Assembly: GCA_963801995.1 (NCBI GenBank)
Contig: CAWDGW010000017.1
Span: forward strand, 669,544-733,543
Source: an uncultured Holophagae bacterium
GTDB lineage: Bacteria; Acidobacteriota; Thermoanaerobaculia; Thermoanaerobaculales; Sulfomarinibacteraceae
Direction: 5' to 3'
DNA: 64,000 nucleotides
This document shows positions 23,125-63,863 of this stretch, in pieces. The first letter of the stretch is position 1. Every line of letters starts with the position of its first letter. The notes beneath the pieces were generated by a model. It was not told where the DNA came from, made no database searches, and saw only the letters and a program-made list of their open reading frames with translations. The translations under genes and the position numbers were made by a program.

Positions 23125-24174
23125 ATGAGCCGCCCGATGCCGTTGGCCTGGTGGCCGCCGTTTGCTGTCGTATGTCTGGGTGTCCTTGCGCCGCCAGCGG
23201 GCGCGCAGGTGTGTCCGGAATTGGTGGGCGTCTTGCCGGGAGCTATCGGTGTCGTCACAGCGTCGGGTGACTACGCATACCTTTGTGGTGACTGCTATTC
23301 AAACGGCGGTGACCTTCATATTGCCGACGTCTCACATCCCTCGGTGCCGGAGGTCGTCGGCCAGTTCGAGATGCCGGAGCTTGATATTCACCAGATCGCC
23401 GTGCAGGACGGTTACGCTTACGTCGTAGGCACGGAGTTTTCGAGTGGGAGTCTTCGTGTGATCGACGTAGCCGATCCGCGCGCCCCCGTGGAGGTGGGGC
23501 GCTTCGACGTCCCGGACGCTTCGGCCACAGCGGTCTCGGTGTCTGGCGCCAACGCGTATGTCGGGTACTTTATCCCGGGTGGATTCCCGTTCCGAGTTCT
23601 CGACGTGAGTGATCCACAGCATCCCATGGAGGTGGGAACGGCTCCTACGCATTGGGTTTACGACGTGGCAGTGGCGGACCACTACGCGTACGTCTCATCA
23701 GGCGATATTTTTCTTTCTTACCTTCAGGTGATCGACGTGAGCGATCCATCCGCACCGGTAGTGTTGGTCACGGTTTTATACTTCGGCGGCCAAATCGCGG
23801 TTGACAACAGCTATTTGTACGCAGCTGGGGGCTCCGGCCTTCGGGTCATCGACGTGAGCGATCCGTCCAACCCGGTCGAGGTCGGCTTTGTCGACTTGCC
23901 GGACGGCGCTGGGGACGTCGCGGTATCGTCCGGCTTCGCCTACGTCACCGACTACCCCGCTGGCCTTCGGGTCATCGACGTGAGTCATCCAACCGCACCC
24001 GTGGAGGTCGGTTTTTTCGACACAGACGGCCTCGCCACAGGTGTCTCGGTTTCAGATGGCTACGTATTTGTTGCGGATGGCAATGGCGGCCTGAAGATCT
24101 TCCGAGAGTGTGGTGTGTTCTTGGACGGTTTCGAGTCCGGCGACACAGCGGAGTGGTCGGCGGTGGTGCCGTAG
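23125..24174 (+). CDS. secreted LVIVD-repeat beta-propeller protein carrying the C-terminal GDTxxWSxxVP tag
   Basis: Signal-like MSRPMPLAWWPPFAVVCLGVLAPPAGAQ. Has about 7 repeats of the L(R/Q)V(I/L)DVSDPxxPVEVG type. Ends ...FLDGFESGDTAEWSAVVP*. Confidence 0.8.
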   Translation: MSRPMPLAWWPPFAVVCLGVLAPPAGAQVCPELVGVLPGAIGVVTASGDYAYLCGDCYSNGGDLHIADVSHPSVPEVVGQFEMPELDIHQIAVQDGYAYVVGTEFSSGSLRVIDVADPRAPVEVGRFDVPDASATAVSVSGANAYVGYFIPGGFPFRVLDVSDPQHPMEVGTAPTHWVYDVAVADHYAYVSSGDIFLSYLQVIDVSDPSAPVVLVTVLYFGGQIAVDNSYLYAAGGSGLRVIDVSDPSNPVEVGFVDLPDGAGDVAVSSGFAYVTDYPAGLRVIDVSHPTAPVEVGFFDTDGLATGVSVSDGYVFVADGNGGLKIFRECGVFLDGFESGDTAEWSAVVP

Positions 24175-24285
24175 AACGGATAGGCCGCGGATGAACGCAG
24201 ATCAGGCGCAATGAGGCGCAGTCAAAAAAACGATCTGGCGAACCGGCCGTATCCACAGTGAAGGTGTTCAGCCGGGGGAGGTGCC

Positions 24286-25445
24286 GTGATGTTCCGTGTC
24301 GCCGCGATATTGGTGACGGTGCTCTGTGGGCTCCAGCCCACAGCCGCTTTGACTCAGGTGCAGTGGCAGGTGGTCGTCAGCGATGGTTTGGGTGACAACG
24401 ACAACGGCGACGCCGGAGCGATGTCGGTTTTTCAGCAGCAGCTGTACATCGGGACGGCCAACTTCACCGATGGAGCCGAGCTCTGGCGCAGCCCGGACGG
24501 GACGAGCTGGGACCAGGTCAACAACGACGGCTTCGGTGACGGCGGCAATCACGCCGTGTACGCCATGGCGGTCTTCGACGGCCAGCTCTATGCGGCGACC
24601 TATCAGGGGAATATCGCCACAGGGACCGGGGTCGAGATCTGGCGTGCCGCCGACGGCTCGTCGTGGGAGCAGAGCAACAGTGACGGATTCGGGGACTCCA
24701 CCAACGCGGGCGCACTTGCGATGGCGGTTTTCGGGGGCGACCTCTACGTGGGAACCTTCAAATTCTCCACCGGGGGCTGCGAAATGTGGCGAAGCGACGA
24801 TGGAACCAACTGGACCCAGGTGAACTCCGACGGCTTCGGCGATCTCAGCAACCAGGGTGTGTTCTCCATGGCGGTCTTCGATGGCCAACTCTACGCCGGC
24901 ACCTACAAGGACAGCGGCGGCGGCGGCGAGGTGTGGCGTCCCCGGACGGCACCGCCTGGACCCAGGTCAACTCCGACGGCTTCGGAAATACCGCAGACAG
25001 GGGCATCTACTCCATGGCGGTGTTTGACGGTCAGCTGTACGCAGGAACCGGTCTCGGCGAGATCTGGCGGACCGACAACGGCACCGATTGGCAGCAGGTC
25101 GTCGGCGACGGGTTCGGCAACGACCGAAACTGGGCGATGGATTCCTTGGCTGTATACCGCGGGGAACTTTTAGCCGGCACGTACAACAGCCTGACCGGGA
25201 CCGAGGTCTGGCGAAGCGCCGACGGCTCAATATGGGAACAGGCCAACAGCGACGGATTCGGTCACGCCTGGAATTGTTCATCATCGTCGGTCGCGATCTT
25301 TGCCGAGCAGCTGCACATCGGGACCTACACCTGCGATCCCATGTTCCCTGCGCCGCCGTTCCAGGTATGGCGGACGAACAACCACATTTTCGAGGACGGC
25401 TTCGAGTCCGGCGACACCTCGGCGTGGTCGGCGGTGGTGCCGTAG
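24286..25445 (+). CDS. secreted repeat protein (~48-aa W-x-QVN-x-DGFGD / MAVFDGQLYAGT repeats), tagged; one 1-nt frameshift near 24940
   Basis: Signal-like MMFRVAAILVTVLCGLQPTAALTQ. The repeats continue seamlessly from ORF 24286-25173 into ORF 24786-25445 (..GGGGEVWR / SPDGTAWTQVNSDGFG..). Ends ..FEDGFESGDTSAWSAVVP*. Confidence 0.75.
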
Positions 25446-25454
25446 GCACGTTTC

Positions 25455-25493
25455 GAGCTTCGGGATTCGGGGTTCGGGGCTCGGGGTTTGGAG
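25455..25493. repeat. 7-bp array GAGCTTC GGGATTC GGGGTTC GGGGCTC GGGGTTT (G-quadruplex-capable)
   Basis: Lies 10 nt after the stop at 25445. Four G3-4 runs are separated by 3-4 nt. Confidence 0.9.
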
Positions 25494-25587: not shown

Positions 25588-26286
25588 ATGCGACGACGCC
25601 TCTCGGATTTCGATCACCCCCTGATCACGAAAAGGCTGAACGAGCTGACCACGGACGACAAATCGGAATGGGGAAACATCGAGGCCTTATTCGATTTCGT
25701 CCGTGATGGCATCCCCTTCGCCTTCCCGATGAAGTTCAGCGACTGGGACGTTGTCAGAGCTTCTGACGTTGTCACATCAGGCTTTGGCTACTGCAACACC
25801 AAGGCGACGTTGCTCGTGGCACTGTGCAGGGCATCTGGAATCCCTGCGCGGGTGCACTACGGCTTGATTGACGTCCGAATCATGAGGGGAATCTTCCCCT
25901 CCTTCGCATTTCCATTTCTGCCGGCATCGGGGCCCCATTCCTGGACCGAGGTGGAAATCGACGGGCAGTGGAAATCGGTCGACTCCTACATCAATGACGA
26001 GACTCTTTTTCGTGCTTCGCGCCGCCGGCTCCAAAGTATGGAGCAGTCTCTCGGTTACTCACTCGCATGCGCGGACGGCAGGTGCAGCTGCGAGTTCAAT
26101 TTCGGCGACCGAGGTTTCGTCCATATGGGAGCAGTCGTCGAAGACCACGGCGTCTGGGATGACGCTTCACAGTACTTTGAGTCCGAAAAATACGTGAGGT
26201 TCAGCGCTATCCAGCGCCTGTTCTATCCCGTGATTGCCGTTGTCAGCAACCGAAATATCAGGCGACTCAGGGCCTCCCTCGGCTGA
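25588..26286 (+). CDS. transglutaminase-like cysteine protease-fold protein (no signal peptide seen)
   Basis: GFGYCNTKATLLVALCRASGIPARVHYG (catalytic Cys block), then HSWTEVEIDGQWKSVDS (His/Asp block). Confidence 0.7.
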   Translation: MRRRLSDFDHPLITKRLNELTTDDKSEWGNIEALFDFVRDGIPFAFPMKFSDWDVVRASDVVTSGFGYCNTKATLLVALCRASGIPARVHYGLIDVRIMRGIFPSFAFPFLPASGPHSWTEVEIDGQWKSVDSYINDETLFRASRRRLQSMEQSLGYSLACADGRCSCEFNFGDRGFVHMGAVVEDHGVWDDASQYFESEKYVRFSAIQRLFYPVIAVVSNRNIRRLRASLG

Positions 26287-26310: not shown

Positions 26311-26414
26311 GAGAATCTCATCCGCCGACACCTCGGCGTGGTCGGTGACGATGCCGGAGGCCGGGATGGTCCGCAGAAGAACGCGGGTCAGAAATTGGAC
26401 GCAGATGAACGCAG
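26311..26414 (+). other. out-of-frame remnant of the tag-coding 3' module plus copy B of the post-tag element
   Basis: 26321-26359 tccgccgacacctcggcgtggtcggtgacgatgccggag translates (+1 relative to the upstream gene) as SADTSAWSVTMPE. Compare ggcgacacctcggcgtggtcggcggtggtgccgtag (GDTSAWSAVVP*) at 25411-25445. The stop has become GAG. It is followed by the element shared with 22843-22908. Confidence 0.7.
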
Positions 26415-27101: not shown

Positions 27102-28226
27102 ATGGCACAAGCACACGGGACTCAATGCCGCCATTCGACCAGGTACCTGGTGGTGACCTCATTCCTTGTACTGTCCCTCGTTGGTCCTCGGCTCACCGCC
27201 GAGTCTCCGACCGGCACGGAAACTGCCGCCCGCTGGGCCTACGGGCCCACGACCGCGGTGGCCGTTGTTGACCAGTACGCGTACTTCGGCAGCGGCTGTG
27301 TGCTGCTGGTCGCCCATATCTCCGATTCAGCAGAGCTGGAGATCGTGGCCGAGATCGCCCTGCCCGGAGTCGTGCGGGGCATCGACGTGGTCAATGGCTA
27401 TGCGTACGTGGCCAACGGGAGGTCCGGCCTTCGAATCCTCGACGTCAGGACTCCAACGACTCCGGTGGAGATCGGCGTCGCGTTGGACCCGAGGGATGCC
27501 TATGGCGTCGAAGTGTCCGGCCGCCACGCCCTGGTTGCGGATTTCCGGGGAGGACTCTGGATCATCGACGTCGCCATACCATCCTCCCCTATCGCGGTTG
27601 GATTATCGGCCGAACCTGCAAACCCGGTTGACGTGGTGGTGTGGGGAGATCACGCCTTCGTCGCGGACATGTGGGACGGACTTCGAGTCATCGACTATTC
27701 CGACCCCTCATCGCCTTTCGAAATTGGGCAATTCGACACTCCCGGGATCGCCATCGGTGTGGCGGCCACTGGTCGCCACGTTTACGTGGCCGACTACCAC
27801 GGGGGTCTGCAGGTCGTGGACGTGAGCCAGCCAGAGAAACCGAATCTCGCCGGCCGAGTCGACACACCGGGCGCCGCCAAGGGTCTCTGGATCTGCGAGG
27901 ATCTGGCACTCGTCGCGGACGACGCTGCGGGGCTTCTTGTCATGGATGTGAGGTCGCCCGCCTCGCCCCTCGTCACCGGATTCCACTCAACGCCCGGATT
28001 TGCATCGGGTGTTTCGAGCGATGGACAAACCGCTTTTGTCGCCGACGGTTGGGCCGGCCTTCGGTTGATTGACATCAGGCCGCCGGCCTCCCCTCTCGAG
28101 GTTGCGGCGTACATCAGCCCGACACGTTCAGCCCCGTCGCGACACTGCGGCGGATATGGGTCTGTCGAAGAAACGCCCTCCGGGATCGAGATCTTCAGAG
28201 ACTGTGATCACGACAGCCGGCAGTAA
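27102..28226 (+). CDS. secreted LVIVD-repeat beta-propeller protein (untagged paralog type)
   Basis: GGAAGGAGG RBS. Repeats of the type LRILDVRTPTTPVEIG, LWIIDVAIPSSPIAVG, LRVIDYSDPSSPFEIG and LQVVDVSQPEKPNLAG. Ends ..EIFRDCDHDSRQ* without the tag. Confidence 0.8.
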   Translation: MAQAHGTQCRHSTRYLVVTSFLVLSLVGPRLTAESPTGTETAARWAYGPTTAVAVVDQYAYFGSGCVLLVAHISDSAELEIVAEIALPGVVRGIDVVNGYAYVANGRSGLRILDVRTPTTPVEIGVALDPRDAYGVEVSGRHALVADFRGGLWIIDVAIPSSPIAVGLSAEPANPVDVVVWGDHAFVADMWDGLRVIDYSDPSSPFEIGQFDTPGIAIGVAATGRHVYVADYHGGLQVVDVSQPEKPNLAGRVDTPGAAKGLWICEDLALVADDAAGLLVMDVRSPASPLVTGFHSTPGFASGVSSDGQTAFVADGWAGLRLIDIRPPASPLEVAAYISPTRSAPSRHCGGYGSVEETPSGIEIFRDCDHDSRQ

Positions 28227-28273: not shown

Positions 28274-28308
28274 GGTTTCCGAATTCCGAATTCCGAATTC
28301 CGAATTTT
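28274..28308. repeat. 7-bp array GGTTTCC (GAATTCC)x3 GAATTTT, an inverted copy of the (GAATTCG)n element
   Basis: Lies between convergent genes. The reverse complement reads AAAATTC(GGAATTC)x3 GGAAACC, matching 7509-7549 and 36414-36454. Confidence 0.9.
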
Positions 28309-28318: not shown

Positions 28319-29696
28319 CTACGGCACCGAGGCCGACCACTGGCCGGTATCCCCGGTCTCGAAGGAGTCCGAGAAAAGGTGGGGACTCGTGACGGTCAGG
28401 CCCTTGATGCAGAAGTTGGCCGTGTCGTCGTCGAACCAGAGATCCTGCCAGACCCCGCCGCCATCGCGGTAGAAGCTCTGATCGGGATCGGCCGATGACT
28501 CCACCAAGGTGCGGCTCTCGGCTCCGAGCAGTACCGGGACGATGGAGGTCCGATCAAAGGGCTGGCCACCCTGGGACAGGCTCAGATACAAGAAAAAGTC
28601 GTCGCCCGTTTGGAGGTTCACCGGAACGTCCAGGTCAACGGTGTAGAATCCCTTCTCGGTCAAGGATCCACTGGTTGTCGAAAGGGGATCGGCCAGGGCG
28701 CCGGCTTCGAAACGATCGTAGACCGTAACCGTGTAATCCACCTGCTCGGCGGCCGTGAAGAAGCTGACTGCCGTCAACAGCTCATCCATGACCGCGGTGA
28801 AGGCGTTGAAGGCTTCGTCCGCATCCAACTTGGTGTCCCGCCATCCGTGGTAGTCGTGGTAATACACGCCTTCGTACCTGAGCGGTTCCACGTCCTGGAA
28901 GGACACCGCCCCCATCTCGGGGTGCTGACAGCTGTACTTGTCGTAGTACGAAATCCAGAAGTAGCCGTCGTGCCCCCACCATTCTCCCCAGCTGTTCTTC
29001 ACCAGCCAGGCGCCCGGTTGCGGGGCTTGAGTGTTGTGATTGATCGTCCCAGCCGACGATGGAAACCGCATGGTTGGGCTCCATGGGCTCGGACGGTGGC
29101 TGGTAGTGGTTGTAATTCCAGTCAATGAACTGACCGGCGTAGGCCATGCAGGTGCCGACCACGCCGTGGTTCATCACCGCCGTCTTGATGGTCTCGATCT
29201 CGCTGAGATCCACCTCGGCCACGTACCAGGCGATGTGGCGCGGATAGTAATAGTGGTAACTGGGATCGCTGCGCAGCGGTGGCGTGTCGTAGCTTTGCCC
29301 GTCCACGTCCCGCACCGCCCCCTCCAGACGGGAGAGGTACGCCGATGTCACCAGGTAGTCGCCGCCGTTGTGAACTTCCAACCCGCCGCCAGTGGGTGGG
29401 TCCGTATCGTCGTTGTTGTGCTGATTGAATCCGTTCCACCAATCCAGGTGGTACTCGGCCAGGTTGGGCTCGCCCTGCTCTCCTGCCGCCGCCCAGGCAC
29501 CGGTCATCAGCAGATTCCCCTCCATGGAGGCCATGGCTCCGTGAGTCCAGCAGGTCCCACCCTGTTGTGACTTGACCGAGGTCACATAGTTGGTCCCGCC
29601 AACGTCGCGAAGATCAAAACTCGCCGGGAGCTGCGCGTGGGCGACGGCGGCAGTCACAAAAACGATGGCGAACACAACGGCGTACTTTTTGGACAT
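28319..29696 (-). CDS. secreted papain-family (C1) cysteine peptidase, tagged; one 1-nt frameshift near 29045
   Basis: Signal [21 protein letters not shown]. Has the catalytic blocks [11 protein letters not shown] (Gln/Cys), [11 protein letters not shown] (His) and [19 protein letters not shown] (Asn/Trp); the last block is in the second ORF (28319-29125). Ends ..[18 protein letters not shown]. Confidence 0.8.
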
Positions 29697-29881: not shown

Positions 29882-31471
29882 ATGCTCGCCCCGATGAGAG
29901 CGGTATTACTCACTGTTGTCGAACGTTCGGTGGTGGTCGTCCTGGCCCTGTTGGTCGCAGGTGGCATCGCCCAACATGTCATGGCTGATTCTGACGGCGA
30001 TTCCAGCCCGGATCTCGCGATCCTCGATCGATCGCCAGGCGATGGCAAGGTATCGCCTTGGGTTGCAGATGCCGTGGCCCTCGGAGGCACCACCGAGCTG
30101 CTCGTGGTTCTGTCCGACCAGGCCGACCTCGAGTCACTCCAGACCGGAGAGGCTTTGTCGGCGCGCCGACATCTGGTGCGAAACGCCTTGTGGGACACGG
30201 CCCAGGCCAGCCAGCGCCAGTTGAGGCTTTGGTTGACCGACAGGGGCATATCCCATCGGCCTTTCTACATCGTCAACGCGATTCTGGTGTCCGGGGCCGA
30301 CAGCGCCCTGGTGGGCGAGCTGGCGACCCGTCCCGACGTGGCGAGGATCGCGGCGAATCCACGGGTGCGGCAGATCCTCCCGGTGCCCAAAGCCCCTCCG
30401 GTGACCGAGTTCGGCGAGGCGATCGAATGGAATGTCTTGCAGATCAGGGCAGACGAAATGTGGGCCAAGGGCATCACCGGCCAGGACATCGTCGTCGGCA
30501 ATCAGGACACCGGCTTCGACTGGGAGCATCCCGCCCTGGTGCAGCAGTATCGAGGATGGGATGGGTCGGCGGCGAACCACGATTACAACTGGCACGACTC
30601 CATCCACACTGGCGGCGGTGCCTGCGGGCCCGACTCGCCGGCGCCTTGTGACGACCACGGCCACGGCACCCTCACCACGGGGGTTGTGGTGGGCGACGAC
30701 GGCGGCGCCAACCAGATTGGAGTCGCGCCCGGCGCGCGCTGGATCGGCTGCCGCAACATGGACCAGGGCGTCGGAACTCCCGCCACCTACCTCGAGTGCC
30801 TGGAGTTCTTCCTCGCTCCCTACCCGGTGGGCGGCACCCCGGCCCAGGGCGACCCCGACCGAGCGCCCCATGTCACCAACAACTCCTGGACGTGCCCGCC
30901 TTCCGAGGGCTGCGACTGGGACACCCTGCAGGCCGCGTTCGAAGCGCAGCGAGCCGCCGGCATCATGACGGTGGTGGCGGCCGGCAATTCGGGCTCGTCC
31001 TGCTCGTCGGTGGATATTCCGCCGGCGATCTACGACGCGGTGTACTCCGTCGGCTCCATTAACCTCTTCGGCGAGATTTCCAGCTTTAGCGCCCGCGGCC
31101 CCGTGATGGTCGACGGCAGCGGCCGGCTCAAGCCTGACATCTCGGCGCCCGGTGAGGACGTCCGTTCGAGCGCCGCCGGAGGCGGTTACGAATCGGCGTC
31201 CGGAACCTCACTGGCCTCCCCCCACGTGGCCGGAGCAGTGGCCCTGCTGTGGTCGGCGTCGCCGTCGTTGATCGGGAGGATCGACGCCACCGAGGCCATC
31301 TTCAACATCACCGCCGAGGGCTGGACGAGCGATCAGTGCGGCGATCCGGCCGACGCCGTGCCCAACAACGTGTACGGATGGGGGGTGCTCGACGCACTCG
31401 CCGCCTACGAGGTCTTCGACGACGGCTTCGAGTCCGGCAACGCCTATTTCTGGTCGGCCATCGTCCCGTAG
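29882..31471 (+). CDS. secreted subtilisin-family (S8) serine peptidase with N-terminal propeptide, tagged
   Basis: Catalytic triad blocks VGNQDTGFD (Asp), HGHGTLTTG (His) and SGTSLASPHVAG (Ser), with NNSW for the oxyanion Asn. Ends ..FDDGFESGNAYFWSAIVP*. The start is uncertain (GTG 29855, ATG 29882 or ATG 29894). Confidence 0.85.
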   Translation: MLAPMRAVLLTVVERSVVVVLALLVAGGIAQHVMADSDGDSSPDLAILDRSPGDGKVSPWVADAVALGGTTELLVVLSDQADLESLQTGEALSARRHLVRNALWDTAQASQRQLRLWLTDRGISHRPFYIVNAILVSGADSALVGELATRPDVARIAANPRVRQILPVPKAPPVTEFGEAIEWNVLQIRADEMWAKGITGQDIVVGNQDTGFDWEHPALVQQYRGWDGSAANHDYNWHDSIHTGGGACGPDSPAPCDDHGHGTLTTGVVVGDDGGANQIGVAPGARWIGCRNMDQGVGTPATYLECLEFFLAPYPVGGTPAQGDPDRAPHVTNNSWTCPPSEGCDWDTLQAAFEAQRAAGIMTVVAAGNSGSSCSSVDIPPAIYDAVYSVGSINLFGEISSFSARGPVMVDGSGRLKPDISAPGEDVRSSAAGGGYESASGTSLASPHVAGAVALLWSASPSLIGRIDATEAIFNITAEGWTSDQCGDPADAVPNNVYGWGVLDALAAYEVFDDGFESGNAYFWSAIVP

Positions 31472-36413: not shown

Positions 36414-36454
<41 letters not shown>

Positions 36455-41974: not shown

Positions 41975-41979
41975 CCCTC

Positions 41980-52521: not shown

Positions 52522-55500
52522 ATGGAACGTTCGGTCAGGGTCTGTTGCGCCGTCTCGCTCCTCCTCCTGCTATATGTGCCCTCAGCGCTCGCCCAGGAGC
52601 CCGGAACCGTAAAGTGGGTCTTCAGTCCTCCCAACACGTATGAACTCGACTCCCCGCCAGCGATTGCCCGAGACGGCACGATCTATGTGGCCGGTCGCGA
52701 TTGGTATGTGTGGGCCCTCAACCCGGACGGGACCCTCAAGTGGCGTTTCACCGCCGATGCGGGATTCCGCTTCAGATCGCCGGCGGTCGCGCCGGACGGA
52801 ACAGTTTATATCGTTGATGACGATAAAGATCTCTATAGCATCGATCCCGACGGAACACTGCACTGGAAGTGGGATAGCCCGGGCCAATACTTCGAAACGA
52901 CCCCGGCTATCGGCCCGGACGGGACCATTTACATCACGGCCAACGACGACGGAGCCGACAACCTCTTCGCCTTCAACCCCAACGGCACGGTCAAGTGGTC
53001 CATTGAAGCCTCGAGTCCGATCACGTCGTCCCCGGCCATCGGCAGAGATGGGGCCATCTACGTCGTCACAGACGGGAGGACTCTCGAGGTCTTCAACCCC
53101 GACGGCAGCCCTGCGTGGAGCTACGTAATGGACGCCGATGGTAGTAGTTGGTGGGCGAACTCGTCACCAGCCATAGGACCTGACGGAGCTATCTACGTCG
53201 CTGGCGGCCCTTTTAGCGATCATGGGCTCTTTGCCATCAATCCCACGGGGACCCTTCGCTGGAGGTTCGATGCCCCATCCGAAATCTACTCGTCGCCGGC
53301 CATCGGGCCCGATGGAACACTCTATGTCGGGACCTACGGCAACAAGCTGCTCGCCGTCAATCCGGACGGCACCCTTCAGTGGGAGTACGTGCTGACCAAT
53401 TCTGTGTACTCCTCAGCGGCGGTCGGATCGGATGGCACGATCTACGTGGGGACGGTCAACGGCTTCATGAACGCGGTCAACCCGGACGGCACACTGCAGT
53501 GGCAACATGAGGGATCCAGCTATTGGTACACCTCGCCGGTTATTGGCCCGGACGGCACGGTCTACGGAGGAGGTCAGCCCTCGTTCTACGCCCTCTACTC
53601 CAGCAGCGACGGCCTCGCCGACACCTCATGGCCCATGTACCACCAGAATGCCCGCCACACGGGAAAGTGGGAGAACGTAGTCATACCGCTTGCCGTCGGC
53701 GACAGCGCGGAGAGCATCGTCCCTCGTGGAGGCAATCACTACTACTCAGTGGAGCCCGATCCCGATCAGGCCCTGTTGATCGAGCTGATTCCCGGGGTGG
53801 ACGCCAACGATCTTTTGCTGACAGGCCAGCTCGGTGCCACCACCTTTTCCACCACAACACTGACACCGAACGGGACCTACGATCTTCTGATCTCCCCCAC
53901 GGCTGCGACTCCCTACACCCTGGCCGTTTACGGTGCCGATGTTGGGGACAACGGCGGCGCCTACACATTGACGGCGAGTTACGTAGAACACCATCTCAGC
54001 AATCTGTCACCGCGGGTTGCTGGAAACGCGGGCGAGGCGCGGTTGGAAATCACCGGGCTGAGGTTTTCCGATCCAATGCAGGTCGCCCTGTCCGGGCCGG
54101 CCTCGATCAACGCATCGGAGGTTTCGGTTGGATCGGACTCCGATGTCCTGGCGCGTTGTGACCTCACCGGCGCCCCAACCGGCACCTACGACGTCACCGT
54201 CACGTGGCCCGACATGAGTTCGGAAACCCTGCCGGGCTCGTTCGAGATCGTACCTGGCACCGGTCCCAACCTCGAGGCGCGCCTGGAGGCACCCGAAGCA
54301 CTCAGGGCCTTGCGTCGCTACGTTGTGTGGCTCGAGTACGCCAACACCGGTGACGCCGACATGCCGGCTCCCCTGTTCACCGTGCGAGCCAACGTCGACG
54401 TCTCCCTGGATCACGATGACATCGCGGGGCACAGCGTCGAGGTCCTCGGCATCGGCGGTTCAACAAACCCGGATGTGCTGCGGGTCGGCGAGTCCATGCG
54501 GTTTCCCATCTACTTCATCGCGCCGAACCTCGGCAGCGACGCCGAGTTCGAGCTCCTCGAAACACCGGACAGCAGCGAGCCCATCGACTGGCCGAGCCTC
54601 AAGGAAGGTATGCGCCCGCCCGACATGGACCCGGGCGTGTGGGATGCTCTGTGGCCCGATCTGATCGCCCGCCTTGGCGTCACCTGGGCCGACTATCTCC
54701 AGGTGCTCAGGGACAATGCGGCGAGGGCCGCATCCTGGGGATTTCCCACCCACGATCCATCCGGCCTGATTGACCTCGAGGTGCTGCAGGCGGCCGGTGA
54801 ACCGCACGCAGCCATCGCCGGCTCGCTGCGCCTCGCCACAACCAACGAGCTCCTGCCGGGCGTGACCCTTCGCCTGCGCAGCCTCGACGGCGCGGTGGTG
54901 AAGGAAACGGACACGACCTATACCCCTCCGGGCCGATTTGCATTTCACGAGGTGCCGGACGGCAGCTATGAGATCTGGATCGAGGGCTACTACCCCGACC
55001 CCGTCATGCAGGTGGAGGTGGTCGGCTCGGATGTGACCGATGTCCAGCTCGTTGGATTCCCCTACGAGCCGGTGAAACTCTCCGAATTCGCTCTCCCCCA
55101 ACACACCCCGGCCATGACAGCGGACGGCACAGGCACTCAATACCTCCTCTGGAAAGAGGGAGCCGAGATCCGGTGGGCCATCAACTCGGGCGGTGTGTGG
55201 ACCCACTCCGGCCCGATCCCCGACGCCGACGGTTCGAATCCCAAGGTCGTGTATGACGATGCTCTGCTGGATGGCGGAATGACCCCCGGGCTGTTTGCCG
55301 CCTGGGAGACCAGTGGGATGGAGAGCACCATCGAGTGGTCGGTGGGTCGATTCGTCTCGGAGGGCATCGAATGGAGCGAGCCCGAAGCGCTGACCTCCGA
55401 CCTGGCCGATGATTTTTCAATTGCTCTATTCACCGACACGGCGTCTGTTCCGATTGTTCTTTGGTTGCAAAAGGACTACGCCATCACCGACGACACGGAT

Positions 55501-58139
55501 CTCTACTACCAGGCCGTTGGTCTCTCCGGGGTTACTGTCAATGATCCCTTCTTCGACTTCGCTTCGATGGCAAGGGATCCGGGCGACTGGCCCTTCTGCT
55601 CGAACCCAGGGCTGAAAGCTCTGTCCGAGCTCCCACCCGGCATTCCCATCATCGGTGGCCACTGGGGGTGGAAGGTCATCGGCAGCGGCTGCGCCCCGCT
55701 CACAACCTGCAATCCGGTGCTCACGCCGAATTGGGATATTGAGATCCCGTCTGGGGCAGCTCGCCAAGTTCGTCGGCAACGCCGGCTTCACCTTCAAGTT
55801 CCAGATCGATCAATGCCCGTGTTCCTACATGCTCCACGAATCCGCCATCAATGCCGGCATCGGGATCAACATCGACGTGCCCGTGGCCGAGGTTCCCCTC
55901 ATTCTCGGCAAGATCCCGGTGGGATACGCCATAGCTACTCTCGGCGTGGCTGGCAACCTCGGAGGCAGTCTGATCTGGCACTCGAATTTCCCAATCCTGG
56001 GTTCCAGCGACGGCGTCCTCAACCTCGATGTCGGCTACGTTGTGACCGGAAAGTTGACCTTCTTCTTCGGTGGCCTGGAGGGCAAGGTCACCGGAGACGC
56101 AACGGTCTATTGGACACAACAGCAACCCGACTACGGCATCAGATTCCTTGGGGAATGCGTCCGACTCATCGGGACAGCATCATCCGGATTCGGGGTCCTC
56201 GAGGAGAATTACGGGATCCAGTGGGGATCCAACTGCCCGCCGCTGCCCACCATGGGAACCGAGGGAATCCGTTTTGACTTCGCAACATCCAGTGATTCAC
56301 GAGACGTCCAAGTCGAGTCACAGATCGAGTACGTGAAAGCTCAATTGGTGGGAACCGGCACGATCCTATGAGGGAAACCCGGTTCTCGGCGACATCTCGA
56401 CTGATCTCTATATCGACGGCCCACCCTCCGTGGCTGTGAGCCCAACCGGAGGTTCTCTCCTCGTCTGGGCAAAGGCCGAGCAACACCAGAACCTCGGAGC
56501 CAAGATCTGGGCATCGAGCTACACGGGAACCGGCTGGTCGACACCAGAGGCCATCACTCCGTCAACGAATTTCGTCAAGGACCCATTCGTCGCCTATGAC
56601 TCGAACGGCAACGCCATGGCCGTGTGGTCCGAAGCCTCCAATGCCGGCCTCGATTTCAATACGAGCTCGGTGGAGGACATCGCGGCGGCGGTCGAGATCG
56701 CCGACATCTGGTACGCACGGCACACCGGAAGCGCGTGGTCGTCACCGGCCCGCCTGGCTGATCTGCCGGGCCGAGACGAGCAGCCGCACCTTGCCCGTGG
56801 TCCGTCGGGGCAGATCGCCGCAACCTGGCTCAACCAGGACGACCTCGGCGATTGGGCGCTCTACGCCGCGATCTGGTACGGATCCTCATGGTCCACACCC
56901 ACCATCATCGCGACACCACCCATCGCCTATCGCCCACTGGTGTACTACCAGGGCGGATTTCCTACGGTTCTCTGGAGCCAGGCCGATCCCGACGTCCCCG
57001 AATCGTTCAACGATTGGAAGCTCTACTGGTCCTCGTGGAACGGAGTGTCCTGGTCCGAACCTGAACCGGTGGGACTTTCCGGATCAACAAAAACCACTGA
57101 AGCTCCTACAGGTCCTGACTCGATGCTGGATCTGCAGTTTCCCGATCCTCCCTCCTACTGCTGTCTGGACAGCTGCGACGATCCTCTGCCCCCGGATCCC
57201 GCCTCCGGCGGCGCCACCCAGATTCCTCAGGGCAACGCATTCTCGCCGGTTGTGGCCTCTGTCGATCCCAATGAAAAGACCGGACCCGCCGGCTCAGGCG
57301 ACGAACACTTCATCGATGCCGGTGACCGGCTGGATTACGTGGTCTATTTCGAAAATCTGCCGGCCGCCGCCGCCCCCGCCCAGGAGGTCTTTGTCACCGA
57401 CTGTCTTGACCACGATCTCGACTGGACCTCGGTCACTCTGGACGAGGTGGCGTTCGGTGATTTCATCGTCGGCAATCCTGGTGCGGAGCCGCTCTTCGAC
57501 ACCCGCATCACCATTCCGGACCACCGGCCTGGCGAAACCAAGGAATGGTGGGTGGACGTCATCACCGACTTCGACCTCGGCACCGGCTGCCTGGACGTCA
57601 TATTCCGCACCCTCGACCCGGTCACCGGGGAGCTGCCGGAGGATGCCTTCGCCGGCTTCCTGCCGCCGGAGGACGGCACCGGCCGGGGCCAGGGACACAT
57701 CAGCCTGTCCGTGGACTCAAAGACCGACCTGGTTGACGGCACCGTCATCACCAACTTCGGCACCATCGTCTTCGACATCAACCAGTCCATCGTCACCAAC
57801 GAGGTCTTCAACACCATCGGCAGCCCGCTGGAGCCGGTGCTCACCGTGAGCCTGGCCGGACCCGGCAGTGGGGTGGTGACCAGCGATCCCCCCGGCATCG
57901 ACTGCGGCGTTGACTGCACCGAGGCCTATCCCATCGCGACGATTGTGGACCTCGAGGCCACCGCGGAGCCCGACTCAGAGTTTGTCGGCTGGTCCGGCGA
58001 TCCGGACTGCTCGGACGGCACGGTGACCATGGACAGCGACAGGAGCTGCACCGCCACCTTCGACCTGCTGCCGTCGCTGCCCTTCTCGGACGGGTTCGAA
58101 TCCGGCGACACCTCGGCCTGGTCGCACACCGTGCCGTAG
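52522..58139 (+). CDS. giant secreted multidomain protein 2 (~1871 aa), tagged; two 1-nt insertions (about 55750 and 56364)
   Basis: Starts MERSVRVCCAVSLLLLLYVPSALAQEPGTVKWVF. It has the same architecture as giant 1. The sequence continues across ORFs 52324.., 55655.. and 56430.., judged by alignment to giants 1 and 3. It carries an extra 81-aa Cys-containing domain (57828-58070) before the tag. Ends ..FSDGFESGDTSAWSHTVP*. Confidence 0.8.
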
Positions 58140-58173: not shown

Positions 58174-58204
58174 TTCTTAGTTCTTAGTTCTTAGTTCTTA
58201 GTTG
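58174..58204. repeat. 7-bp array (TTCTTAG)x4
   Basis: Read directly, 35 nt after the giant-2 stop. Confidence 0.9.
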
Positions 58205-58479: not shown

Positions 58480-61400
58480 ATGGCCCATTGCGTCCCGACT
58501 CGTGTCGCCCTCACGGCCCTGATCCTGATCAGTTCGACCGTCAGCTCCAGTCAAGAGCCCGGCACCGTGAAATGGGTTTTCAGCCCACCCAATACCTTTG
58601 AGCTCGATACGTCGCCGGTCATCGGCCGTGACGGCACAGTTTACGTAGCCGATCGCTACCTATACCTGTGGGCGCTCAACCCGGACGGGAGTCTCAAATG
58701 GCAGTTCAGCGCCGATGACGGCTTCGAAGCCACTTCACCGGCCGTCGCACCGGATGGAACCATCTACATCGTCGACGACTCACAGAATTTCTATGCCATC
58801 AATCCGGACGGTTCCCTCCGCTGGATGTGGGAAGACCCGGACAACCAACGTTTTGAATCGACCCCGGCCATTGGTCCGGACGGGACCATTTACATCACGG
58901 CCAACGACGACGGAGCCGACAATCTTTTTGCCTTCAATCCCGACGGGACCATCAAGTGGTCGACACAAGCATCGACGTTCATAACCTCATCTCCGGCCAT
59001 CGGCAGAGATGGTGCCATCTATGTCGTCGTGGATGCGAGAATCCTCGAGGTCTTCAACCCGGACGGCACTCTTGCCTGGAGTTATGAGATGGACTCCGAG
59101 GGACACAATTTTTACATAAACTCGTCGCCAGCCATCGGGCCTGACGGTGCGATCTATGTAGGCGGAGGACCATGGACCGATCCGGGGCTCTTCGCCATCA
59201 ATCCCAACGCCACGCTTCGATGGAGGTTCGATTCCCCGTCCGCAATCTACTCATCACCGGCCATTGGGCCCGATGGGACCATTTATGCCGGAACCTACGG
59301 CAACAAGCTGATGGCCGTCCACCCCAACGGAACGCTCCTTTGGGAGCATGGGCTCGGTGGCTCTGTCTACTCTTCCCCGGCGGTCGGATCGGATGGCACG
59401 ATCTATGTTGGTTCGTCGAATGGCTTCATAACAGCGGTCAACCCGGACGGAACCCGACAGTGGCGGCATGAGGGATCCTGCTGGGAGCTCGCAAGCCCTG
59501 CAATCGGCCCGGATGGGACGGTTTACGGGGGTGGACAGCCCTCGTTCTATGCGTTGTACTCAAGCAGCGACGGCCTTGCCAACACATCATGGCCCATGTT
59601 TCAGCAGAACGTCCGCCACACCGGGAAGTGGGAGAACGTGGTCACGCCGCTCGCTGTTGGCGACACCGCCGAAAGCACTGTCCCACCAGGAGGCAATCAC
59701 TATTACTCGGTGGAGCCCGACGCCGATCAAGCCCTGTTGATCGAACTCATGCCCGGGGTGGGCGCCGACGATCTCTTGCTCACCGGGCAGCTCGGCGCCA
59801 CAGTTTTTTCCACCGCGACGCTGACACCGAACGGGACCTACGAACTTCTGATCTCCCCCACGGCCGCGACGCCCTACACGCTGACCATCTACGGTGCCGA
59901 CGTAGGACCAAACGGAGGCGCCTATTCGCTGACGGCTCGGTACGTCGACCACCACCTCAGCGATCTGTCACCTCGGGTAGCAGGCAACGCCGGTGAAACG
60001 CGACTGGGAATCACCGGATTGAGATTCTCCGACCCCATGCAGGTCTCCCTGTCCGGACCCGGCGCAATCGGCGCCACCGAAGTCACGGTGGGATTGGACT
60101 CGGACGTCCTGGCACGTTTCGACCTCACCGGAGCCCCCACCGGCACCTACGATGTCACCGTCACCTGGCCCGACATGACTGAGCGAACCCTCTCAGGGAT
60201 ATTTGAGATCGTGGCCGGCACGGGGCCTCAGCTCGAGGCACAGCTTGTGGCACCCGAAGCACTCAGGGCCTTGCGTCGCTACGTTGTGTGGCTCGAGTAC
60301 GCCAACACCGGCGATGCCGACATGCCGGCTCCCCTTTTCACCGTACGAGCCAACGTGGACGTGTCCCTGGATCACGATGACATCGCGGGGCACAGCGTCG
60401 AGGTCCTGGGCATCGGCGGTTCGGCAAACCCGGATGTGCTGCGGGTCGGCGAGTCCATGCGAGTTCCCATCTACTTCATCGCACCGAATCTGGGAAGCGA
60501 CGCCGAGTTCGAGCTTCTGGAAACTCCGGACACCGGTGAGCCCATCGACTGGCCCAGCCTCAAGGAAGGTATGCGCCCGCCCGACATGGACCCGGGCGTG
60601 TGGGATGCTCTGTGGCCCGATCTGATCGCCCGCCTTGGCGTCACCTGGGCCGACTATCTCCAGGTGCTCAGGGACAATGCGGCGAGGGCCGCATCCTGGG
60701 GCTTTCCCACCCACGATCCATCCGGTCTGATCGATCTCGAGGTGTTGCAGGCGGCCGGTGAACCGCACGCGGCCATCGCCGGCTCGCTTCGCCTCGCGAC
60801 GACCAACGAGCTCCTTCCAGGTGTAACGCTCCGCCTGCGCAGCCTCGACGGCGCTGTGGTCAAGGAAACAGACACCACCTACACCCCTCCGGGCCGGTTC
60901 GTGTTCAACGAAGTGCCGGACGGCAGCTACGAGATCTGGATCGAGGGCTATTACGTGGATCCGGTGATGCAGGTGGAGGTGGTGGGCGCCGACGTGACCG
61001 CGGTGCAACTGATTGGGTACCCGTACGAGCCGGTGGAGCTCTCCGAATTCGCTCTGCCCCAACACACTCCGGCCGTGACAGCGGACGCCGCCGGCACCCA
61101 GTACCTCCTCTGGAAAGAAGGAAACGAGATCTGGTGGGCCATCAATCCGGCGGTGTGTGGACCCACTCAGGCCCGATCCCCGACGCCGACGGTTCGAATC
61201 CCAAGGTCGTGTATGACGATGCTCTGCTGGATGGCGGAATGACCCCCGGGCTGTTTGCCGCCTGGGAGACCAGTGGGATGGAGAGCACCATCGAGTGGTC
61301 GGTGGGTCGATTCGTCTCGGAGGGCATCGAATGGAGCGAGCCCGAAGCGCTGACCTCCGACCTGGCCGACGATTTTTCTATCGACCTGTTCACCGATGCG

Positions 61401-63863
61401 GCATCGGTGCCCGTGGTGCTCTGGCTGCAGCGGGACTACGCGATCAACGACGACACGGACCTCTACTACCAACCCGTCGGTCTCTCCGGAATCGCCGTCG
61501 ATGATCCGTTCTTTGACCTCGACTCGATGGCGCGGGATCCTGGCGACTGGCCATTCTGCTCGAACCCCGGCCTCAAAGCGCTGTCCGAGCTTCCGCCCGG
61601 AATTCCGATCATCGGAGGTCACTGGGGCTGGAAGGTCATCGGCAGCGGCTGTGCACCCCTGACCACCTGTAATCCGGTTCTCACGCCCAATTGGGAGATC
61701 GAGATCCCCCTGGGGCAGCTCGCCAAGTTCGTCGGCAACGCCGGCTTCACCTTCAAGTTCCAACTGGAACAATGCCCGTGCTCCTACATGCTCCACGAAT
61801 CCGCCATCAACGCCGGCATCGGGATCAACATCGACGTGCCCGTGGCCGAGGTTCCCCTGATTCTCGGCAAGATTCCGGTGGGGTACGCCATAGCTACTCT
61901 CGGTGTGAGCCGGCAACCTCGGAGGTGGTCTCATCTGGCACTCGAACTTCCCAATCCTGGGCTCCAGCGACGGCGTCCTCAACCTCGATGTCGGCTACGT
62001 TGTGACCGGGAAATTGACCTTCTTCTTCGGTGGTCTGGAGGGCAAGGTCACCGGAGACGCAACGGTCTATTGGACCCAGCAGCAGCCCGACTACGGCATC
62101 GCTTCCTTGGGGAGTGCGTTCGACTTGATCGGGACCGCGTCAATCGGGATTCGGCGTTCTCGAGGAAACTACCTGATCCAATGGGGATCCAATTGCCCAC
62201 CGCTGCCCAGCATGGGAATTTGAGGGAATGTATATTCCCGTTCGGGAATCCGGTACATCGCGAGACGTCCAAATCGAGTGGCAGATCGAGTACGTCAAGG
62301 CTCAGTTGATGGGACCGGCACGACCTACGAAGGCAACCCCGTGCTCGGCGACATCTCGGCAGACGTCTATATCGATGGACCGCCCTCTGTTGCCGCCAGC
62401 GCCTCAGGAGATGCTCTCCTCGTCTGGGCCAAGGCCGAGCCACACCAGAACCTCGGCGCCAAGGTCTGGGCGTCCACCTACACCGGTACTGGCTGGTCTG
62501 CACCGGAAGCCGTCACTCCGGTAACCGATTTCATCAAGGACCCATTCGTCGCCTATCGACTCAAACGGCAACGCCATGGCCGTGTGGTCCGAAGCCTCCA
62601 ATGCAGGCCTCGATTTCAATACCAGCCCGGTGGAAGACATCGTCGCGGCGACCGAGCTCGCCGACATCTGGTACGCACGGAACACGGGGGCGCGTGGTCC
62701 TCACCGGTCCGGCTGGCTGATCCTCCCCGGCCGAGACGAGCAGCCATCCCTCGCCCGCGGACCCTCTGCACAGATCGCCGCCGCCTGGCTCAACCAGGAC
62801 GACCTCGGCGACTGGGCGCTCTACGCCGCGATCTGGTACGGATCCTCATGGTCCACGCCCGCCATCATCGCGACGCCACCCATCGCCTATCGCCCGCTGG
62901 TGTACTACCAGGGCGGATTTCCTACGGTTCTCTGGAGCCAGGCCGATCCCGACGTCCCCGAATCGTTCAACGACTGGAGGCTCTACTGGTCGACGTGGAA
63001 CGGTGTGTCCTGGTCGACTCCCGAGCCGGTGGGGCCTGGCCGCGCCTTCGGAGGGCACCACGAGACCCGACAGAAGTCGTGTCTCGATGCTGGACCTGCA
63101 ATTCCCGGATCCTCCGTCCTACTGTTGTCTGGACAGCTGCGACGATCCTCTGCCCCCGGATCCTGCCTCCGGCGGCGCCACCCAGATTCCTCAGGGCAAC
63201 GCATTCTCGCCGGTTGTGGCCTCTGTCGATCCCAATGAAAAGACCGGACCTGCCGGCTCAGGCGACGAACACTTCATCGATGCCGGTGACCGGCTGGATT
63301 ACGTGGTCTATTTCGAAAATCTGCCGGCCGCCGCCGCCCCGGCCCAGGAGGTCTTCGTCACCGACTGTCTTGACCACGATCTCGACTGGACCTCGGTCAC
63401 TCTGGACGAGGTGGCGTTCGGTGATTTCATCGTCGGCAATCCTGGTGCGGAGCCGCTCTTCGACACCCGCATCACCATTCCGGACCACCGGCCTGGCGAA
63501 ACCAAGGAATGGTGGGTGGATGTCATCACCGAATTCGACCTCGGCACCGGATGTCTGGACGTCACATTCCGCACCCTCGATCCCGTAACCGGCGAGCTGC
63601 CGGAGGATGCCTTTGCAGGCTTCCTGCCGCCTGAAGACGGCACCGGTCGTGGACAGGGTCACATCAGCCTGTCCGTGGACTCAAAGACCGACCTGGTGGA
63701 CGGCACCGTCATCACCAACTTCGGCACCATCGTCTTCGACATCAACCAGTCCATCATGACCAACGAGGTCTTCAACACCATCGGCAGCCCGGGACCGTCG
63801 CTGCCCTTCTCGGACGGATTCGAGTCCGGCGACACCTCGGCGTGGTCGCGCACCGTGCCGTAG
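58480..63863 (+). pseudogene. giant secreted multidomain protein 3 (~1794 aa if repaired), tagged; N-terminal 2.66 kb intact, then about 12 single-nt indels between 61147 and 63080
   Basis: Starts MAHCVPTRVALTALILISSTVSSSQEPGTVKWVF. It is colinear with giant 2 (offset about 5958 nt) with stretches of 100% nucleotide identity. The conserved protein sequence hops among ORFs 58480.., 61134.., 62002.., 62228.., 62278.., 62576.. and 63003... Ends ..FSDGFESGDTSAWSRTVP*. It may be a real pseudogene or an assembly artefact. Confidence 0.7.

Follow-up and report, generated by a model that had tools for sequence, protein, structure and literature searches.

The window analyzed here, a stretch of 64,000 nucleotides, encodes secreted proteins that carry a common terminal tag of 18–19 residues, with the consensus [ILV]-F-x-D-G-F-E-S-G-D-T-S-A-W-S-x-T-V-P and the terminal form …IFADGFESGDTSAWSxTVP followed by the stop codon. 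The core of the original prediction, namely that secreted proteins bear a so far undescribed tag at a terminus, probably read by some sorting or docking machinery, was supported, and we infer from the features described below that the tag quite probably serves, after Sec export, for sorting or anchoring of one kind or another and is recognized in trans.

The core motif F-E-[ST]-G-[DN]-x3-W, sought as a DNA pattern, occurs in eight copies in the window, against none expected by chance (mean of 0.00 matches in 100 dinucleotide-preserving shuffles), and all eight copies originally claimed are thus present. Seven of them abut a stop codon and the eighth directly follows a signal peptide. On the forward strand, C-terminal tags were located at 24118–24171 (FLDGFESGDTAEWSAVVP) in the gene for an LVIVD beta-propeller protein (23125–24174, stop codon 24172–24174); at 25389–25442 (FEDGFESGDTSAWSAVVP) in that for a Kelch/propeller-like repeat protein (24286–25445, one frameshift); and, in divergent form, at 31415–31468 (FDDGFESGNAYFWSAIVP) in that for an S8 subtilase (29882–31471). 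On the reverse strand, a papain-family (C1) peptidase with a lectin-like domain (28319–29696, one frameshift) ends in an 18-residue tag at 28322–28375. Three giant proteins of the forward strand also end in the tag: giant 1 (46619–52141), which runs from a PQQ/BamB-like propeller to a DUF7619 domain, at 52085–52138 (FYDGFESGDTSAWSRTVP); giant 2 (52522–58139, two frameshifts), in which DUF7619 and an InlB-B-repeat-like domain precede the tag, at 58083–58136 (FSDGFESGDTSAWSHTVP); and giant 3 (58480–63863, at least three frameshifts) at 63807–63860 (FSDGFESGDTSAWSRTVP). The variant predicted at the mature N-terminus of a Cys-rich protein (forward strand, 31555–32493) was found at 31621–31677 (IFADGFETGDVWRWTDSVG), downstream of the signal peptide, with the junction …LWAQN/IFADGFETGD…; this protein had no family match. 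A tag remnant had been reported as well: the tag-derived stretch exists, its limits being 26324–26356 on the forward strand (ADTSAWSVTMP), and it is a decayed 3' half lacking the 5' half, outside any ORF and just 3' of a transglutaminase-like gene. Likewise, a 30-mer is shared by two of the tag-carrying genes, as claimed, at corrected positions (25401–25430 and 63819–63848). The window also contains an untagged LVIVD paralogue (forward strand, 27102–28226), whose stop codon comes six residues past '…IEIFRDC', the point at which the tag starts in its tagged relatives.

Pfam analysis of the window carriers identified the LVIVD propeller, the C1 peptidase plus its lectin-like domain, S8, and the PQQ/BamB-like propeller plus DUF7619. 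These identities agree with the families called earlier (C1, S8, and propeller/adhesin-like), and the signal-peptide-like N-termini attributed to the carriers were seen in all eight. The carriers had been taken as seven otherwise unrelated proteins; unrelated families are indeed involved, and their number is five, plus the Cys-rich protein, since the three giants are paralogues. Nor could the seven ORFs be accepted as they had been read: four of them (24286–25445, 28319–29696 on the reverse strand, 52522–58139, and 58480–63863) are broken by frameshifts. These are probably indel errors of long-read sequencing, because an orthologue in a related MAG (P0476) has a comparable error.

When genomes were scanned with a pattern that had no stop codon in it, the tag was recovered at no fewer than 112 loci in about 60 species-level MAGs, with a stop codon right after the final VP in 116 of 125 matches. 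The motif scan beyond the window that had been suggested as a check therefore revealed a widespread and nearly always terminal tag. All genome matches are uncultured MAGs, mostly labeled as Thermoanaerobaculia, 'Holophagae' or Acidobacteriota, from about 60 independent assemblies made with differing technologies; the reading frame of the tag is in every case that of a long ORF, and one MAG has at least 14 copies among the matches listed. An exhaustive profile search found the tag in 7,576 protein clusters, and most of the best 120 protein database matches, obtained with the tail in duplicate as query, end exactly at …TVP. We propose that the tag is specific to Thermoanaerobaculia-type Acidobacteriota. 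The 97 carriers scanned fell into 59 Pfam families, all of extracellular type, their folds including propellers, subtilases, papain-like peptidases, and beta-helices. Enrichment in signal peptides, another of the suggested checks, was also found: signal-peptide-like N-termini were scored in 49 of 72 tagged ORFs (68%) against 74 of 199 untagged ones (37%; p = 8e-6), using a crude home-made heuristic whose background is high, as the latter figure indicates.

In the sequence logo, positions -18 to 0 of the tag are near-invariant, a conservation that is inflated in the top-scoring matches, which were chosen for their similarity to the profile. Of 157 tags, 151 end in Pro; the net charge is about -3, and there is neither a hydrophobic run nor any Arg or Lys. 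Synonymous codon variation occurs at every position, and the stop codons are mixed (TGA 56, TAG 46, TAA 13). Near-invariant residues combined with this variation indicate that the constraint acts on the protein, and the tag thus evolves under protein-level constraint. Tandem tags with a period of 20–24 residues are present in 20 proteins, and a full tag lies straight after the signal peptide on three unrelated passengers (the Cys-rich protein of the window, L042, and P0302). Together with the lack of a hydrophobic or basic segment, these arrangements point to binding more than to processing. The original prediction was silent on tandem together with N-terminal tags, on the frameshifted carriers, and on the likeness to a jelly-roll strand described below.

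No model of Pfam or of NCBIfam release 20 (2026) matched the tag tails, nor did any Pfam model at E <= 10; as a positive control, NCBIfam detected the YLP-box tail (10–11 residues) in the same type of query. A PDB sequence search with the tag gave only weak matches, to the internal HasA segment (E about 0.07), which were judged to be due to chance, and literature searches for the motif and for sorting in Thermoanaerobaculia returned nothing relevant and no description of the tag. The statement that it fits no known sorting signal thus held across Pfam, NCBIfam, PDB, and the searched literature. A resemblance to the colicin TolB box (DGSGW) was considered and dropped as weak.

Further insight came from homologous passengers. 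DUF7619 and LVIVD homologues end in the tag or else in a T9SS C-terminal domain (CTD), PEP-CTERM, a dockerin, SLH or a YLP-box tail; at the sequence level the tag is thus exchangeable with known anchors, in a 'choice-of-anchor' pattern. On LVIVD homologues, T9SS CTDs are the commonest alternative at the position of the tag. The DPNEK…FDINDSIITN module preceding the tag in the giants, which had been likened to a module preceding T9SS sorting domains, is DUF7619: of 120 homologous cases, 2 do continue into a T9SS domain, while YLP-box tails and dockerins are far commoner there. PEP-CTERM replaces the tag on homologous passengers P0190 and P0472, both matched by NCBIfam PEP-CTERM models, and dockerins are annotated on P0136, P0142, P0159, and other homologues. 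The LVIVD carriers scored 66.7 and 33.7 bits against NCBIfam choice-of-anchor B (TIGR04312), below its cut-off of 100 bits, and they are sub-threshold relatives of that family, which likewise has alternative C-terminal anchors.

The AlphaFold model of the LVIVD protein (23125–24174) has a propeller with pLDDT above 90 and tag residues 332–349 at about 40, so the tag is predicted to be disordered on a confidently folded passenger and not to pack onto the propeller. The tag aligns to positions 1–17 of a home-made jelly-roll repeat HMM. In the repeat proteins behind this HMM, internal copies match PF14099 from position 1 and CBM_4_9 (PF02018) from position 2, and the repeat domain was modeled with a ConA-like fold. 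The first strand of these jelly rolls reads F-x-D-G-F-E-x-G-x3-W, as the tag does. Unlike that strand, the tag stands alone, ends in T-V-P-stop, and has Thr in place of a core hydrophobic residue: the position is L, F or M in 95 of 127 domain copies and T in 79 of 86 terminal tags. A complete ConA-like beta-sandwich (about 130–230 residues) is absent from the tag, since the stop comes five residues past the Trp and the other 120–230 residues of the domain are missing, and neither PF14099 nor PF02018 matched at the tag in tails or window carriers. In sequence, the tag thus mimics strand 1 of a ConA-like jelly-roll domain in which the buried hydrophobic residue has been changed to Thr.

A partner was sought among the neighbors of the tagged genes. 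All ORFs of 112 loci were clustered; the 115 untagged neighbors in these loci comprised 132 Pfam families, none recurring more than twice, and no receptor, enzyme or secretion component linked to tagged genes was found among them. Ser/Thr kinase-TPR proteins occur in 22 loci but were rejected: with about 1 per 35 kb they are roughly as dense there as in the window, which probably reflects nothing more than abundant paralogues. The transglutaminase-like gene (25588–26286), whose product looks like a cytoplasmic enzyme, and the HlyD/AcrB pump encoded 5' of the giants, which resembles an ordinary RND efflux pair, were also discarded, neither recurring near tags elsewhere. A regex search of the ORFs in the loci yielded no PEP-CTERM tails, and in a search of the loci with a home-made HMM for jelly-roll domains lacking strand 1, only tags and two carriers (L101 and L103) scored.

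On balance, we favor a handle for docking rather than an export signal that is cleaved off. According to this proposal, carriers would cross the inner membrane by means of their N-terminal signal peptides and then fold, the tag staying unfolded as an acidic-aromatic extension of a free terminus, where one conserved envelope component would read it in trans. Docking would be non-covalent, the receptor taking the retained tag as an extra beta-strand or hairpin, a mode of capture suggested by the likeness of the tag to the opening strand of a ConA-like jelly roll. Hydrolases and adhesin-like proteins captured in this way would be held at the cell surface, as dockerins do for their carriers. The cell surface is probably the destination to which the tag directs its carriers, and docking by a handle retained there is plausible, if short of an even chance. 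Against docking, the extreme C-terminal preference and the invariant -VP would fit a signal for export or processing, or the reading of a free carboxylate, equally well, and the commonest LVIVD alternatives, T9SS CTDs, are export signals and not docking modules. In its most specific form, which we consider a long shot, the tag would be half of a natural split jelly roll and the receptor a ConA-like beta-sandwich without its first strand. Any exported protein with the 19-residue tag at either end would supply this strand in trans, and the two parts might share a Ca2+ site.

It is possible, if doubtful, that the tag is an outer-membrane export signal, that is, a tail that a translocon or its adaptor reads in the periplasm and that is possibly removed later, as a miniature counterpart of the T9SS CTD; an example would be a T2SS-like secretin system with a GspC-type PDZ domain binding the free …S-x-T-V-P-COOH. 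The strictly terminal position and the near-invariant -VP end would suit such a role, as would the T9SS CTDs that most often occupy the same place on LVIVD homologues in other phyla. Large carriers that fold in the periplasm have an outer membrane to cross, and the sharing of one near-invariant sequence by thousands of proteins fits well with recognition by a single machine. However, full tags are found at mature N-termini with the passenger after them, which makes a free carboxylate at the C-terminus dispensable; tags also occur in tandem, and we know of no tandem copies of T9SS or PEP-CTERM signals. Moreover, no secretion gene was linked to tagged genes among the neighbors in the loci, and a Pro at position 0 is atypical of PDZ ligands.

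A cis-acting element without any sorting function is quite unlikely. The tag would then be an orphan jelly-roll strand capping or complementing its own passenger, a homo-oligomerizing element or a protection against carboxypeptidases, which are resisted by a terminal Pro; its identity with the first strand of ConA-like jelly rolls would be accounted for, and so would L101 and L103, in which a jelly-roll domain lies directly 5' of the tag in an arrangement resembling a circular permutation. Such a role is at odds with passengers of unrelated fold, with the unpacked tag in the AlphaFold model, and with Thr replacing the buried hydrophobic residue in terminal tags, while a protective cap would need far fewer than 18 near-invariant residues. 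Very improbable is a C-terminal degron or processing site through which a tail-specific periplasmic protease of the Prc/CtpA type would set exoenzyme level or activation: such proteases read C-terminal peptides and the tail is terminal, disordered, and accessible, but known Prc/Tsp signals are apolar and the tag is acidic and Pro-ended, N-terminal and tandem tags occur, and the choice-of-anchor pattern favors anchoring over turnover. Finally, a DNA cassette or relic at gene 3' ends with incidental translation, or an assembly or gene-calling artefact, is barely credible and already contradicted: identical codons are commoner between tags of the window than codon usage would give (in one example 13 of 15, with 7.3 expected), codon choice at some Ser positions is biased in a position-specific way across MAGs, and heptamer DNA repeats lie just 3' of several tagged genes, yet the synonymous variation led us to reject a DNA repeat, the tag keeps its frame and recurs in independent assemblies, post-stop sequence is unconserved between families, and the heptamers also follow untagged genes.

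Thermoanaerobaculia and related Acidobacteriota abound in soils and sediments, and much of what they export in the way of hydrolases, propeller proteins, and giant adhesin-like proteins appears to bear the tag. A model of the tag would make their secretome readable from sequence, flagging thousands of 'hypothetical' proteins, and would offer a sharp handle for phylogenetic profiling towards the partner; in the diderm envelope, this would represent a new component for secretion, anchoring or docking. A tight peptide-receptor pair could serve as a biotechnological docking tag. Were the split jelly roll correct, the surface of Thermoanaerobaculia would bear a proteome-wide array of exoenzymes and adhesins, docked by a system unrelated to cohesin-dockerin, sortases, T9SS or exosortases.

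Among known systems, well-characterized short C-terminal sorting signals all rely, to our knowledge, on a transmembrane helix and a basic cluster, and an acidic, disordered tag of 18 residues that can also be N-terminal implies a different recognition principle; we know of no sortase-like partner for it. Like the tripartite C-terminal sorting signals (LPXTG, PEP-CTERM, GlyGly-CTERM, and MYXO-CTERM), as defined in bioRxiv 10.1101/2023.06.07.544157, the tag lies at the extreme C-terminus, in many copies per genome and with an invariant signature, on unrelated carriers with N-terminal signal peptides (59 families among 97 carriers; 68% against 37%). Unlike them, it has no transmembrane helix or Arg cluster, is acidic, and is sometimes tandem or N-terminal. 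The C-terminal beta-signal of outer-membrane proteins is defined by a terminal aromatic residue (Phe/Trp) after alternating hydrophobic residues, whereas the tag ends in Pro. The YLP-box 'ultrashort_CTERM' (NF053834/NF050076) is likewise very short, C-terminal, and devoid of a transmembrane segment, occurs on DUF7619 and LVIVD homologues as the tag does, and also has an only putative function; its sequence (YLPL[VI]xR[RK], about 10 residues, hydrophobic and basic) is unrelated to the tag, and its models match YLPL…R tails and not the tag. The T9SS CTD (Por_Secre_tail, TIGR04183/PF18962) shares the position of the tag on LVIVD and DUF7619 homologues, and both are found on hydrolases and adhesins that diderm bacteria export by Sec, but the CTD is a folded beta-sandwich of about 70–100 residues whereas the tag has 18–19 and is disordered in the model; its models matched neither tails nor whole carriers, while the positive control P0214 was matched. 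Type I dockerins (PF00404) have no sequence similarity to the tag, which lacks their EF-hand-like DxNxDG loop and helix; PF00404 was found neither on tails (Pfam, E <= 10) nor among the Pfam matches of the eight carriers in the window, and no receptor resembling a cohesin turned up. Dockerins are, like the tag, acidic, mostly C-terminal and at times N-terminal or internal on secreted hydrolases; both are duplicable units of about 22 residues, and dockerins replace the tag on DUF7619 homologues. As to the mode of recognition, the TonB box and the N-terminal 22-residue sequence that targets CsgA to CsgG are short unstructured epitopes caught by beta-augmentation. They resemble the tag in being short, disordered, and terminal, with an envelope partner that would read it, and have no sequence relation to it; they belong to single protein families, whereas the tag is proteome-wide.

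A six-frame search of the window for the core F-E-[ST]-G-[DN]-x3-W returned eight occurrences, and the matching DNA pattern was found eight times against 0.00 expected in 100 dinucleotide-preserving shuffles. Seven copies ended in …W-S-x-x-V-P directly before a stop codon, in agreement with the original prediction that seven genes share this terminal motif (the tag): those of the LVIVD beta-propeller carrier (gene 23125-24174; tag 24118-24171, +), of genes 24286-25445 (25389-25442, +) and 28319-29696(-) (28322-28375, -), a copy at 31415-31468 (+), and those of three giant proteins, giant 1 (gene 46619-52141; 52085-52138, +), giant 2 (52522-58139; 58083-58136, +) and giant 3 (58480-63863; 63807-63860, +). 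The predicted N-terminal variant on an eighth, Cys-rich protein (31555-32493) was located at 31621-31677, directly 3' of the signal peptide (…LWAQN followed by IFADGFETGD…). All eight carriers have signal-peptide-like N-termini, as had been claimed. Pfam analysis identified the LVIVD propeller, another repeat protein of propeller-like type, a C1 peptidase that also has a lectin-like domain, an S8 subtilase and, in the three giants, a PQQ/BamB-like propeller followed by a C-terminal DUF7619; the Cys-rich carrier matched no Pfam or NCBIfam family. The seven proteins had been described as otherwise unrelated, which does not hold for the giants, since these are paralogues. A 30-mer reported to be common to two tagged genes is indeed present, starting at 25401 and 63819 rather than where it had been placed.

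Four of the eight carriers are not the intact ORFs originally assumed: frameshifts, from one to three or more per gene, break the reading frames of 24286-25445, 28319-29696(-), 52522-58139 and 58480-63863. The probable cause is indel error in long reads, since P0476, an orthologue from another MAG, shows a comparable defect at its own C-terminus, where the tag is lost to a frameshift; pseudogenisation may instead be responsible. A second LVIVD gene (27102-28226), an untagged paralogue, stops six residues past '…IFRDC', where its tagged relatives begin the tag. Upstream of it and just 3' of a transglutaminase-like gene, the predicted tag remnant was recovered, outside any ORF and with a corrected extent of 26324-26356 that corresponds to the 3' half of the tag. 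The paralogue ending at the tag start and the nearby half-tag together suggest tag loss or turnover inside the cluster. Two Cys are conserved in the LVIVD carriers (23125-24174 and homologues), the first close to the mature N-terminus (QDCPELVG) and the second in '…FREC', two or three residues upstream of the tag; these may form a disulfide closing the propeller just upstream of the tail.

The window otherwise carries ordinary chromosomal genes ([NiFe]-hydrogenase and hyp genes, a kinase, an M28 peptidase, POR/ACS and an RND pump). The complete [NiFe]-hydrogenase locus (1-15526), comprising small and large subunits, a 4Fe-4S protein, an NrfD-like membrane subunit, the HycI protease and HypA, B, D and E, has no connection with the tag. 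Tandem heptanucleotide repeats (TTCGGRR, three to four units) occur at 6551-6578(-), 7512-7539, 25459-25486, 28277-28304(-), 36417-36444, 41977-42004, 52151-52171 and 63867-63887, and a (TTCTTAG) x4 array lies 3' of giant 2 (about 58174-58201). For several arrays the distance to the preceding stop codon is between a few and about 20 bases, behind tagged and untagged genes alike. The repeats could be terminators, protein-binding sites or some other intergenic element found across the genome.

The tag proved widespread and terminal in other genomes as well. The tails, doubled so that the query was long enough, were made into a profile that gave 623 matches among 5.8 billion proteins, and most of the best 120 ended exactly five residues past the Trp, in …TVP. 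With HMMER, 1.84 billion cluster representatives were searched exhaustively, which retrieved 7,576 proteins at E <= 0.001. For each GTDB species, one genome was scanned with the back-translated pattern D-G-F-E-[ST]-G-D-T-x2-W-[ST]-x2-V-P, which does not include the stop codon; at least 112 loci matched, and among the loci listed a stop codon directly followed the motif in 116 of 125 in-frame matches. The loci came from about 60 assemblies, every one a MAG, labelled mainly Thermoanaerobaculia, 'Holophagae', Acidobacteriota, Ca. Multivoradales or Ca. Sulfomarinibacteraceae and in a few cases Deltaproteobacteria, Polyangiaceae, Gemmatimonadota, Acidimicrobiia or Chromatiaceae; among the matches listed, MAG CAVQOJ01 carried at least 14 tags. 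A logo of 157 terminal copies, [ILV]-F-[ASE]-D-G-F-E-S-G-D-T-S-A-W-S-x-T-V-P, has 18 nearly invariant positions, a conservation that is overstated because the copies are top-scoring matches. Since all synonymous codons are used at each tag position and all three stop codons follow it (TGA 56, TAG 46, TAA 13), the constraint acts at the protein level. A mild excess of shared codons among the window tags and position-specific Ser codons suggest that the tag-coding DNA was spread by recombination or duplication.

Tagged proteins outside the window also look extracellular. In 97 tagged proteins taken from the genome loci, the last 400 residues contained 59 Pfam families, among them InhA-like MAM, FG-GAP, LVIVD, S8, beta-helix, LamG, CHRD, PKD, NHL, GH8, M12 and PL14, a typical extracellular repertoire. 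By a crude heuristic, signal-peptide-like N-termini were present in 49 of 72 complete tagged ORFs, whereas the untagged ORFs of these sampled loci had them in 74 of 199 cases (p = 8e-6), in line with the expected enrichment. ORF clustering of the loci and Pfam analysis of 115 untagged neighbours revealed no recurrent family as a linked partner, and the sampled loci contained no PEP-CTERM tails. Ser/Thr kinase-TM-TPR proteins are encoded within 8 kb of tagged genes in 22 of 112 listed loci (about 20%; e.g. L050:965-4738) and at 16993-20244 in the window; this proximity probably reflects paralogue abundance, not linkage, since their density in the loci is similar to that in the window.

The strongest functional evidence for a sorting or anchoring element is the interchange of terminal anchors. 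Homologues of the giant 1 DUF7619 region end in the tag in some cases, in dockerins (PF00404) in many, and otherwise in T9SS CTDs (P0214, P0225), SLH (P0229), PEP-CTERM (P0190) or …FYR[LV]… beta-sandwich ends. The LVIVD carriers are sub-threshold relatives of NCBIfam 'choice-of-anchor B'. Among 120 homologues of the window's LVIVD carrier, 28 end in the tag and about 20 in T9SS CTDs, others having PEP-CTERM (P0472), YLP-box tails or a dockerin-like segment. Many homologues of both types close with short YLPL[VI]xR[RK] tails (e.g. P0140, P0157, P0183, P0367), three of which were tested and matched NF050076 and NF053834, the NCBIfam 'YLP-box putative sorting motif'. Homologues end variously in the tag or in known anchors, so that one passenger bears different anchors by lineage. 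A recurrent tail, CPG[YF]VP…PRRx[ST]GRRxP, closes LVIVD homologues P0391, P0450 and P0371; it gave only a chance-level NCBIfam match (E = 0.02) and is possibly a further undescribed terminal motif of another lineage.

In an AlphaFold2 model of the window LVIVD carrier with 30 aligned homologues, residues 30-330 had pLDDT >90 versus about 40 for the tag (332-349), so the tail is predicted to be disordered and unpacked against its passenger. Among the best 150 of the 7,576 matches, 80 had a C-terminal tag only, six a C-terminal tag plus an internal copy, and 46 two to six internal copies. Where the copies are internal, each unit of a 200-290-residue repeat begins with the motif. The units match PF14099 from position 1 and CBM_4_9 from position 2, and they are modelled as a beta-sandwich; among solved folds, ConA-like lectin/lyase domains (TtX122, Cip1, PL7 and sialidase lectin domains) come closest to it. 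Since terminal tags align to positions 1-17 of the repeat HMM, the tag is strand 1 of the jelly roll, with the following loop, in free-standing form. It is specialised in the residue after G-D (Thr in 79 of 86 terminal tags; L/F/M in 95 of 127 domain copies) and in its T-V-P end. Tandem tags with a period of 20-24 residues were found in 20 proteins, and a full tag directly after the signal peptide in three unrelated passengers (window 31555, L042, P0302); a strand of jelly-roll origin thus seems usable at either terminus. In L101:2196-3821(-) and L103:2-868(+), a ConA-like jelly roll is represented by its C-terminal half (HMM positions 100/125-200), and the tag (1-17) comes directly after it, an arrangement resembling a circular permutation of the domain. 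In two Lys-rich S8 peptidases, P0249 and P0271, the catalytic domain is preceded by two perfect IFADGFESGDTSAWS units, with low-complexity linkers between them and no TVP end; tag-like units are thus also found internally, possibly in another lineage.

Because the tag is terminal, disordered and constrained as protein, its carriers are secreted and unrelated, and known anchors replace it, we consider it likely that one conserved envelope component recognises it in trans. We tentatively favour a retained docking handle that would be captured by beta-strand addition, because the tag lacks any segment for retention in a membrane and originates from a jelly-roll strand of the edge-forming kind, and because tandem and N-terminal copies, which it shows, typify dockerins and other binding modules. 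Nearly as likely, though still only a possibility, is an outer-membrane export signal, perhaps read via the free …TVP-COOH end; the strictly terminal position and the frequency of T9SS CTDs, the commonest alternative on LVIVD homologues, speak for it. A cis-acting cap or oligomerisation strand is improbable, and a degron more improbable still. A DNA-level or artefactual repeat, contradicted by the synonymous-codon and stop-codon variation, can be given hardly any credence. For a large uncultured clade the tag defines the secretome, and it indicates a putative envelope machinery whose mechanism we infer.

The tag is a real and general feature, and none of the libraries searched describes it, as had been proposed: no Pfam model matched the tails at E <= 10, the only match in NCBIfam release 20 (June 2026), to positions 1-22 of NTTRR-F1, was at chance level, a PDB sequence search yielded no meaningful match, and the motif was not found in the papers searched. 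The same NCBIfam release contains and detects tails of 10-11 residues (YLP-box). We would class the tag as a terminal protein-sorting/anchoring tag, set apart as very short, acidic, disordered and free of a membrane segment. Compared with the usual attributes of C-terminal sorting signals listed in a 2023 preprint (10.1101/2023.06.07.544157), it shares C-terminal location, many copies per genome and invariant signature residues, and its carriers share signal peptides and mutual unrelatedness, but it lacks both architectural attributes, the transmembrane helix and the basic cluster. For ultrashort tails of this kind, without a membrane segment, the YLP-box provides a precedent.
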